Source: Escherichia coli | Lineage (GTDB): Bacteria; Pseudomonadota; Gammaproteobacteria; Enterobacterales; Enterobacteriaceae | Length of the DNA stretch: 64,000 nt | NCBI RefSeq assembly: GCF_030013205.1 | Contig: NZ_CP122648.1 | Direction: 5' to 3' (one strand) | Shown here: piece after piece, positions 4,301 through 7,300 of the stretch | Position numbering within the stretch: position 1 is the first letter of the stretch | Layout of the letters: each line of letters opens with the position of its first letter | Program-made: the position numbers

Positions 4301-7300
4301 GCCCTGATTGCGAAATCTCGCGATACCTTTATTCGTCTGCTGAACGCCACCCCGAACGGTGTGATCCGCAACTCCGACGTGGCAAAAGGTGTGGTCGAAA
4401 CCTCCCTGAACGTCGGTGTGGTGACCATGACTGACAATAACGTAGAAATTCACTGCCTGATCCGTTCTCTGATCGACAGCGGTAAAGACTACGTGGTGAG
4501 CATGCTGGATTCGCTGGGTAAACTGGCTGGCGCGAAAACCGAAGCGAAAGGCGCATATCCTGGCTGGCAGCCGGACGCTAATTCTCCGGTGATGCATCTG
4601 GTACGTGAAACCTATCAGCGACTGTTCAACAAGACGCCGAACATCCAGATTATTCACGCGGGCCTGGAATGTGGTCTGTTTAAAAAACCGTATCCGGAAA
4701 TGGACATGGTTTCTATCGGGCCAACCATCACCGGTCCGCACTCTCCGGATGAGCAGGTTCATATCGAAAGCGTTGGTCATTACTGGACACTGCTGACTGA
4801 ATTGCTGAAAGAAATTCCGGCGAAGTAATTACGATAATGTCCACGCCTGCGGGCGTGGACAACTGTTTGAAGCCAATGGCTATCTATATCGAAATAACAA
4901 AACATTATGAAACTCATGAAAAGGTCGCATATTTATATAGCTGCGACCATATTTCATGGGGAGAATTTCTGATCACCAAAGAAAGTTTTGCGCTGGAATC
5001 CGTGAAAGAACTTAAGGGTGAAAAGCAGAAATTTTATATGTTCAGAGCCTGGGGCAAAGTCAGGAGAGCATACTTAACCACGGGAGAATTCCCCCAGGAA
5101 ACATGTTACGCCGCTTAAAGTCAGAATAATTTTTTCATGCATTTACCATTTTGGCATTACGCCTGCACCACATGGCAATGGCGGCAACCACTAATGCCAG
5201 TTCCAGTAAAAACGACCAGTGTAATAAAAAATTGAGCCACCACGGATGATGTACCGCCGTAATATGAAAGAATGCAAACGGTTGGTTAACGAAAGGCATC
5301 AGCCACCAGATATCACCGACCAGCGTATCGAGTAATAAATGGGTGATACTATTCAGGCAAAACACCACACCCAGCCACGCCGGAAGTTTATTCTTCGCAA
5401 TTGTGGCCCAGAATAACGTCGCCGCCAGCAGAGCTGGCCATAACAATGGCCAATGTGTAGGGTAAAGATGATGATGTCGTTGCCCGTTATCAACCAGATA
5501 GCACCAGAAAAGATCAAAATCGGGCGCAATGGCCCCAACTAAGCCAATAACCATCACCCAGCGCGCATGACGAGCAATCAGTGGCAAGCGTTTCACTAAA
5601 GTACAAGTTATTAAATAACCAGCCGGAAGATGACCGATAAACATGACGATTCCTTTCGTTTTTCCCGCCGCTTTCATGTAGAAAACGGCGGGAGACATTC
5701 CTCAATTACACAGCGACAAAAGCCATCCCTGTAAACGTTCGTCGCGGGTTGCCACGTTCAATCTGGTGATGGAACATTCGCCGCTGCGATTTCAGCGCCG
5801 CGCTATTTTTCTGTTGCTGCTGCTCCAGCTTCCAGGCAATCAGCAATCGCGCCAGCCGTTTGTTAGCATGCTGGCTGCGCTCTGACTGAACCTTCACGCT
5901 AATCCCGGATGCCAAATGCGTGGCGCGTACCGCCGAGTCGGTTTTATTGACATGTTGACCGCCCGGCCCCGACGAACGCAGCGTCTCATACCGGATCGCA
6001 TCGGATTGCTCCTGCTCATCAGCGGTAAAACGCCCAATGCCCAGAAACCAGTTTTTGCGCCCATGATGAGGCCGATACGGACTCGGACAAATCCACTGAA
6101 TAGTGCCGCACCAACTTTCGCTTAATGCCCATGCATTATCGCCATCCAGAGAAACCAGCGCTGAACGCAGCGTGTCAGAGTAGCGGCCCGTTTCTGTTTC
6201 CAGCACCGTTACCGCGACGTCTTGTCGGGTAGCTTCTTTAATCAGCCTGTCCAGTGCCTTTTTCACTGCGAGACAACATTCTTCCGGCCCCTGAGCTGAG
6301 GAGAGTTGTAGCAAGATCATCCTTTTTTCCCTCCACTGTTTTTGAGCGTTAGCACCGGACGCAGTCGCGCGACAGGAATAATTAAACCGGCTTGCACCAG
6401 ACATTGCACCACGCTTTCTGCCGATTTATAGGCTTGTGGCGCTTCTTCGAAGATGAGTTGTTTATCGCGACAAATCACCCGGCTGCCAAGTTCAGTACGC
6501 GAGAGTTGCGTCGCCGTGTAATTCGCTGCCAGACGCCCTTTACACTCGGTGCGCCCCCATTTACGCCCTGCCCCATGCGCCAGCGAGTGGAGCGTTTTTT
6601 CGTTCGCAACAGGCTCTACAAGCCAGGAGTAATCGCCGCGTGAACCGGGAATAATCACCAGACCGTTGTCATCCGGCGTGGCACCTTTACGATGCAACCA
6701 GCCCTGTTGATCACCGATTCGACACGCGCTAACAAAGTTATGCGCCACATCCAGAACCGGACTTCCCATGGCTTTCACTTGTTGCATTATGCGCAAAGCA
6801 ATCAGCTGGCGATTAATACGCGCAAACGCCAGCGCATCGTCATGTTCCGCAATATACCGTAGCGCGTCGTCACTGCCTTCAGGCAAACCATGATGCGAAA
6901 ACGAGGCAATATGCCGCTGTAAAATAGACTGCCCCAACCCCCTCGAGCCGCTATGAACCAGCAGTTGCAGATGCTGCGCATCCAGACCTGCCAATGCAAA
7001 CACTTCAGCGTCGATGATTTCATCAACTTGTTGCAGTTCTGCGAAGTGGTTTCCGCCACCGATAGAGCCAAGCGAGCTGCGCCACGGATGCTGTGCAAAT
7101 GCTGACGGCAGGTTTTCCTCCAGCCAGCTTTCTTCAGCAACGTCATCCAAAGCTGATAATCGCTTTTCAAACTTATCGGCGTTGTATTTACGAGCGAGAA
7201 TATCTGTTTGCCATAGCGCCATGCCACAGCCGATATCATTGCCGACCAGTGCCGGGTAAAAACGGCCTACGGAGAATAACGCTGCGCCAATCGGATAGCC

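Follow-up and report, generated by a model that had tools for sequence, protein, structure and literature searches.

What is encoded by the short open reading frame (ORF) that separates pepD from the prfH operon in some strains of Escherichia coli? The question was raised by a stretch of 64,000 nucleotides (nt) from E. coli contig NZ_CP122648.1 (the window), for which a preliminary description, made from the sequence alone, had noted an "unannotatable", AT-rich ORF of about 80 codons between these genes, convergent with a membrane hydrolase gene and not expected from the K-12 layout, and had taken it for either a genuine accessory gene or a remnant. Analysis of its conservation, of the neighbourhood of its homologues and of the locus itself establishes this small ORF as a real, conserved gene. 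We propose that it probably encodes an orphan immunity protein of an unnamed polymorphic-toxin family, which has been inherited vertically and is likely to be protective against an injected toxin.

Conservation of the small ORF

The 306-bp interval containing the small ORF is present in 329 of 5,426 complete E. coli genomes (about 6%), including clinical strains of the sequence type 69 (ST69) type, at 96-100% identity, in single copy and always on the chromosome. The reading frame is intact and annotated as a coding sequence (CDS) in all 24 full-length E. coli records listed. Protein searches returned matches from Escherichia albertii, Escherichia sp. TW09231 and Salmonella enterica (58% identity), and when 1.84 billion cluster representatives were searched with a profile, 57 families were recovered at E < 1e-3, nearly all matched end to end. 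The length of the family members is nearly constant (78-82 residues), and full-length homologues with identities down to 23-30% are spread over many phyla. All of the invariant or near-invariant residues of the family (M1, A2, K9, E12, Y19, G29 and P73) are kept in E. coli. An AlphaFold2 model computed on the family alignment, with a predicted local distance difference test score (pLDDT) of 94.8, places a long helix between the first four beta-strands and a fifth. Conservation among relatives had been left as a check on the ORF, to be given up should there be none; homologues were found widely.

Comparison with the syntenic E. albertii gene gave 13-14 synonymous and 7-11 non-synonymous changes, corresponding to a ratio of non-synonymous to synonymous substitution rates (dN/dS) of 0.10-0.15 by Nei-Gojobori counts, in which the non-synonymous sites are about fourfold the synonymous ones. 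The synonymous divergence (dS) between the two species is 0.35-0.39 for the small ORF, near the 0.28-0.31 of pepD, which together with the low dN/dS argues for vertical descent under purifying selection.

Neither the small-ORF protein nor the toxin domain with which its homologues are associated (see below) has a match in Pfam, NCBIfam or PADLOC at E values up to 1-10. Searches of PDB sequences with single sequences and profiles of both proteins returned noise only, and the best Foldseek hits against the PDB had E values of 0.6 for the immunity model and 1.9 for the toxin model. No match was thus obtained to the catalogued Imm, SUKH, Tox or Ntox families of Pfam, and both the toxin and the immunity families are unnamed. 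A match to goose-type lysozyme was dismissed for lack of significance (E 0.27), and would also be a poor fit to an immunity protein without a signal peptide. The term "unannotatable" is therefore apt as far as profile libraries and the PDB are concerned; it does not survive the inspection of the genes around the homologues, by which the small ORF is assigned as the immunity partner of a polymorphic-toxin domain.

Association of homologues with a polymorphic-toxin domain

The closest toxin-linked homologues are from Salmonella. One of them (P0020, 58% identical) starts 10 nt after the stop codon of an Rhs gene and is preceded by an AAGGAG Shine-Dalgarno sequence. Genes of the P0020 type follow either a 1,683-residue Rhs protein, the conserved core of which ends in DPLGL and is succeeded by a variable C-terminal domain of 141 residues, or a 167-residue orphan Rhs tip. 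Such an order is canonical for a C-terminal Rhs toxin and its RhsI protein. In Salmonella Toulon, a 56%-identical copy lies after a toxin-ended ORF of 373 residues in a VgrG-DUF2169-PAAR-like cluster. The same order was seen at loci that were viewed singly, namely L017 (where the toxin domain is part of a 578-residue protein), L009-L012, L013, and those of Bacillus anthracis and Nostoc. In each of these an ORF matching the hidden Markov model (HMM) of the immunity family (E 5e-13 to 8e-31) is found directly downstream. L009-L012 are arrays of toxin/immunity cassettes together with Tox-SHH, Tox-MPTase4, Tox-ART-HYD1, SUKH and Imm26 genes; the carrier in B. anthracis is a WXG100+PT-TG protein, and the Nostoc toxin is encoded by a stand-alone gene.

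A scan of one genome per species, which was seeded by the toxin alignment and not by the immunity family, gave 27 toxin loci from Thiomargarita, Lachnospiraceae, Clostridium, many Nostocales, Xenorhabdus, Woodsholea, Pseudomonas, Anaeromyxobacter, Bacillus and an enterobacterium. At 26 of them an immunity-family ORF lies 4-86 nt downstream on the same strand. Linkage was found at further loci besides these 27 (L005, L029, L017, L009-L013, L026 and L027), and over the 26 loci and seven further ones the gap is 3-86 nt.

The toxin domain comprises about 125 residues, is all-alpha in the model and is marked by the motifs RVKEHxF, RFDPDxEIADAW, HEYFESxFE, TAH and SGRxW; residues H72, F82, W92, R94, D104, L107, H110, E111, E114, E118 and Y125 are invariant among 269 relatives. 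It forms the C-terminus of RHS-repeat proteins in four phyla, with Rhs proteins of Salmonella, Lachnospiraceae, Thiomargarita and Anaeromyxobacter among its carriers, and is also carried by PT-HINT proteins, WXG100+PT-TG proteins and proteins of PAAR-like/VgrG clusters. In cyanobacteria (Nostoc, Anabaena and others) it constitutes a stand-alone protein of 120-126 residues without a delivery domain. The small-ORF homologues thus lie directly behind, and on the same strand as, a toxin domain that behaves as a polymorphic-toxin module, being C-terminal, beginning after a DPxGL or pre-toxin boundary and appearing in fusion with varied delivery domains. Such linkage, combined with such a variety of carriers, typifies polymorphic-toxin C-terminal modules that have dedicated immunity proteins.

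Two observations on the distribution of the toxin domain may be added. At twelve Nostocales loci (L037, L040, L042-L045, L048-L052 and L054) the partner has 79 residues and lies 44-86 nt downstream, and these pairs resemble toxin-antitoxin modules, not secreted effectors. On plasmid pPR19E02 of Rhizobium hidalgonense (L030, 184-1872), a hemagglutinin-repeat, CdiA-like protein ends in a divergent toxin domain (36% identity) that has RHEIAERW in place of HEYFESRF. The 109-residue ORF downstream of it, judged by eye only, has no obvious likeness to the immunity family and was excluded as support.

Search for a cognate toxin in E. coli

In the window, the immunity HMM, of which the window ORF is itself one training row, matches the small ORF (E 1e-27) and nothing else, and the toxin HMM has no match in any of the six frames. 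No toxin gene precedes the small ORF; its upstream neighbour is pepD, the stop codon of which lies 47 nt before the ORF start. This position behind pepD and the lack of a toxin-HMM match in the window are the grounds on which we call the gene an orphan. When the toxin and immunity DNA of Salmonella was used as a query, 310 E. coli genomes matched over the immunity part only, and none of the 5,426 complete genomes matched the toxin part (blastn "distant", about 65% identity or more). There is no Escherichia among the toxin carriers found in the search for relatives and in the species-representative scan. Enterobacterial plasmids yielded neither the toxin nor the immunity gene, the sole Escherichia "plasmid" match being a record of 4.9 Mb that is evidently a chromosome.

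As to the two possibilities offered by the preliminary description, the small ORF qualifies as a genuine accessory gene, since about 6% of E. coli have it, E. albertii has it at the same locus, its dN/dS is low and its invariant residues are retained. It is a remnant as well in one sense, as the immunity half of a module without the toxin half. Such copies are not confined to the pepD-prfH junction: a 46%-identical stand-alone copy is located next to queE, with a queD-like ORF on its other side, on an enterobacterial contig (L014, 1079-1321). This is a different core locus, and toxin-less copies have therefore arisen more than once.

Start codon and predicted localization

The NCBI Prokaryotic Genome Annotation Pipeline (PGAP) annotates a 93-residue version of the small-ORF product as "hypothetical protein" (RefSeq WP_077881290, WP_022645226, WP_000106438 and others; L001, 4009-4290), with an N-terminal extension of 13 residues from an in-frame ATG. 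We think that this database start is wrong and that translation begins at ATG 4876, giving a protein of 80 residues that starts MAIYIEITKHYETHEKVAYLYSCDHISWGEFLITKE and ends at the stop codon 5116-5118, as the preliminary description had it. The shorter version is preferred because ATG 4837 sits within the 5' arm of the stem of a hairpin that follows pepD, and because the extension is variable within E. coli (N, Y or F at its residue 9) and does not occur in E. albertii, in Salmonella or in any distant homologue; these all start MA(I/V/F)Y. The hairpin is also kept in E. albertii, and the fold of 4826-4890 has an energy of -25 kcal/mol (z = -4.9). A consensus terminator scan, which requires a T-run, made no call there, and the structure is likely a leaky terminator. 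No signal peptide, transmembrane segment or hydrophobic segment was detected in the small-ORF protein, which is therefore predicted to be cytoplasmic, implying a toxin that would act in the cytoplasm.

Comparison with known systems

Polymorphic toxin systems have reportedly been catalogued by Zhang et al. in 2012. The arrangement of the small-ORF homologues is like that of RhsI and CdiI in three respects: a small co-directional ORF lies directly after a variable C-terminal toxin domain (for Salmonella, the part of Rhs beyond the DPxGL boundary), one toxin/immunity cassette is found on different delivery domains (RHS, PT-HINT and WXG100/PT-TG), and orphan toxin-tip/immunity cassettes occur in arrays. 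Unlike the catalogued RhsI and CdiI systems, neither protein matches a Pfam Tox, Ntox or Imm family and there is no solved structure to compare, and the gene in the window is preceded by pepD instead of a toxin. Cognate RhsI has been shown experimentally to block its own Rhs C-terminal toxin (Rhs-CT), and RhsI immunity is usually cognate-specific (Poole et al. 2011, PMC3150448). The main and orphan Rhs modules described in Salmonella (Koskiniemi et al. 2014, PMC3967940) offer the nearest parallel, since the closest toxin-linked homologues reside in Salmonella rhs loci and follow both full-length Rhs proteins and orphan Rhs tips; the C-terminal toxin, however, is of a different type.

Orphan immunity genes are documented as acquired interbacterial defence (Kirchberger 2017, Ross 2019 and Bosch 2023, as cited in PMC12483513). 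The small ORF is like them in being an immunity homologue apparently kept without its effector in the genome of a likely target, a strain that lives among Enterobacteriaceae and has genes of a type VI secretion system (T6SS). The described examples usually lie in effector/immunity arrays or on mobile islands, whereas the small ORF is a single gene at a core junction and, unlike them, appears to have been inherited vertically since before the split of E. coli and E. albertii. A likeness to type II toxin-antitoxin systems exists in cyanobacteria, where a stand-alone toxin is paired with a 79-residue partner in the absence of a delivery domain. In contrast to type II systems, however, the toxin gene comes first, the partner model has no recognisable DNA-binding domain and the E. 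coli copy has no adjacent toxin.

Proposed function and alternative explanations

It is proposed that in toxin producers the immunity protein would bind the toxin and neutralise it in the cytoplasm, by analogy with RhsI and CdiI, and that the E. coli lineage represented by the window keeps only the immunity gene. The gene would have been at the pepD-prfH junction since before the split of E. coli and E. albertii, and most E. coli would have lost it through the replacement of an 885-bp segment. Possibly transcribed by read-through of the pepD hairpin, which has no proper U-tract, it would give an orphan protein that shields the cell from a toxin injected by a competitor, such as the Rhs proteins of Salmonella or T6SS effectors linked to VgrG/PAAR-like genes.

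Several points weigh against this proposal. The toxicity of the toxin is deduced from domain architecture, and neutralisation by the family is argued from analogy. With its 56-58% identity to the toxin-linked Salmonella proteins, and RhsI immunity being usually cognate-specific, cross-protection by the E. coli protein is uncertain; no toxin is known that corresponds to the E. coli allele, and the DNA-level search of E. coli for the toxin would miss a very divergent one elsewhere in the genome. As for the gene, it is positioned behind a strong hairpin, its Shine-Dalgarno sequence (GAAG) is weak and a consensus promoter scan found no sigma-70-like promoter. About 94% of E. coli lack it, frameshifted copies occur in some raw assemblies (P0005, P0009, P0018, P0021 and P0022), and within E. 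coli, where substitutions are very few, its dN/dS of 0.24-0.60 is looser than that of pepD and prfH.

Apart from the hairpin, these features of the gene would also be in keeping with a non-functional relic, that is, the immunity half of an ancestral Escherichia toxin-immunity module which is unexpressed or useless and is being lost, as would the insertion sequence (IS) in the adjacent hydrolase gene of one carrier. We regard a relic as unlikely, since it does not account for the low dN/dS across the E. coli/E. albertii divergence, the intact and annotated frame in every full-length record listed, the retention of all family-invariant residues or the independent orphan copies elsewhere, such as the one beside queE.

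Could the small ORF instead have been co-opted locally, as a solitary antitoxin-like or adaptor protein acting with the YdjM hydrolase or with the ribosome-repair genes prfH and rtcB2? Its co-occurrence with the YdjM-type gene on one 885-bp segment, repeated in E. albertii, fits such a role, as do the stand-alone two-gene modules of cyanobacteria, which are like toxin-antitoxin pairs, and the reported counteraction of the ribotoxin colicin E3 by RtcB2-PrfH (PMC9223846 and PMC9304027). Outside Escherichia, however, the family is linked to the toxin domain and not to rtcB, prfH or ydjM; the small ORF is convergent with the operon and not co-transcribed with it, and the co-occurrence is explained by a single indel. 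A local role is thus improbable. Little credence is likewise given to a bolder version, in which the toxin/immunity pair is wholly undescribed and the toxin, all-alpha, without a structural neighbour in the PDB and bearing invariant H, D, HExxE...E and H residues, has a new enzymatic activity. The pepD-prfH locus next to RtcB2-PrfH would then form a composite anti-ribotoxin defence island, for the sake of which Escherichia would have retained the orphan gene throughout its history, and the toxin would target translation. Finally, a chance ORF in an AT-rich intergenic spacer, as might be suggested by the short length, the atypical composition and the lack of Pfam, NCBIfam, PADLOC and PDB matches, is excluded by the distant full-length homologues, the high pLDDT, the purifying selection and the conserved place behind a toxin gene.

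If the small ORF is an orphan immunity gene, as we favour, a "hypothetical protein" of about 6% of E. coli gains a candidate role in resistance to contact-delivered toxins of competitors such as Salmonella. The proposed correction of the database start codon shortens the product from 93 to 80 residues. The conceptual gain is modest, because orphan immunity genes as such are already well known; what is new is the unnamed family. The analysis reveals an unnamed toxin domain and its immunity family in RHS proteins, T6SS clusters, WXG100/PT-TG proteins of the type VII secretion system (T7SS) type, PT-HINT proteins and stand-alone cyanobacterial modules. Since profile and structure searches gave a match for neither protein, the activity of the toxin may be one not yet described.

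Organization and history of the locus

The gene order in the window is crl, frsA, gpt, pepD and the small ORF, followed on the minus strand by the YdjM-family hydrolase gene, prfH, an rtcB-family ligase gene, yafP, yafO, yafN and dinB (Table 1). The hydrolase gene, co-directional with rtcB-prfH and convergent with the small ORF across 16 nt, is the membrane hydrolase gene of the preliminary description. The contrast in composition reported there was reproduced, with a GC content of 0.38-0.40 over 4800-5159 against 0.50-0.54 in pepD and 0.53-0.58 in prfH (about 52% in the flanks), and so was the departure from K-12, which has only 56 bp of unrelated sequence between pepD and a prfH pseudogene.

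Table 1. Coordinates of the small ORF, its surroundings and other features of the window.
Feature	Position	Strand	Remarks
pepD	3371-4828	+	
Presence/absence segment	4829-5713		885 bp; comprises the hairpin, the small ORF, the YdjM-type hydrolase gene and the last prfH codons
N-terminal extension	4837-4875	+	13 codons, 93-residue PGAP version from in-frame ATG 4837; probably untranslated
GC-rich hairpin	4839-4862	+	10-bp stem GUCCACGCCUGCGGGCGUGGAC right after the pepD stop codon, then a poor U-tract ACUGUUUG
Small ORF	4876-5118	+	80 codons and a stop codon; product predicted as a soluble beta4-alpha-beta protein, immunity-family member
YdjM-family hydrolase	5135-5644/5698	-	"metal-dependent hydrolase" membrane protein; Pfam PF04307, E 3e-9; PGAP CDS
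prfH	5706-6404	-	Intact; mechanical ORF of 232 residues
rtcB-family ligase	6317-7468	-	Intact
DDE_Tnp_1 transposase	20914-21879	-	Adjoins an Rhs fragment
125-residue ORF	22100-22477	-	Weak DUF7674 match, below the Pfam cut-off
RHS-repeat/RHS-core protein	22477-24648	-	723 residues
VipA/TssB	25347-25847	+	T6SS sheath gene; E 1e-51

About 94% of E. coli genomes resemble K-12 in having a spacer of about 56 bp. The hydrolase gene was found in 327 of the 5,426 complete genomes, almost the same number as the small ORF, and prfH in 5,415, where most matches start at query base 9, equivalent to window position 5714. From this co-occurrence and the start of the prfH matches it follows that about 6% of E. 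coli have an 885-bp segment carrying both genes, in place of which the others have about 56 bp. In E. albertii the arrangement is the same except for an additional ORF of 171 residues between pepD and the small ORF (L023, 4450-4965). The shared arrangement and the matching dS indicate that it is ancestral and was subsequently lost. The 171-residue ORF was considered as the missing toxin and rejected: it has no toxin-HMM match, its C-terminal region is hydrophobic (Kyte-Doolittle peak 2.34) and was read as two transmembrane segments, it has no match in Pfam or NCBIfam, and none of the 5,426 complete E. coli genomes contains it. The ORF may represent a second orphan immunity-like gene.

In K-12, ykfJ and prfH are pseudogenes, but in the window both prfH and the rtcB-family ligase gene are intact. 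The mechanical prfH ORF extends upstream of the PGAP start (204 residues) and overlaps rtcB. Insertions close to the small ORF were seen in two strains: in c1-17 (L022, 2128-3306) ISVsa5 truncates the YdjM-type hydrolase gene, and in IMT16316 (L003, 7089-7786) IS1 splits yafP; the small ORF is intact in both. In the spacer of E. coli HS-02 (L002, 4050-4420) the small ORF is represented by its first 9 nt, ATGGCTATC, after which the sequence is homopolymer-rich with traces of the hydrolase gene. Either a copy has decayed here or the assembly is at fault, and the spacer was left unused.

The window also contains an RHS locus of its own. The core of the 723-residue RHS-repeat/RHS-core protein ends DPIGL...RLDPLGL; beyond it lies a variable C-terminal region of about 230 residues, which is unrelated to the toxin family of the small-ORF homologues. 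The start of the 125-residue ORF overlaps the end of the RHS gene by 1 nt, and the two probably form another toxin/immunity pair. The presence of the VipA/TssB sheath gene, at a distance of about 20 kb from the small ORF, shows that the strain itself has T6SS genes.

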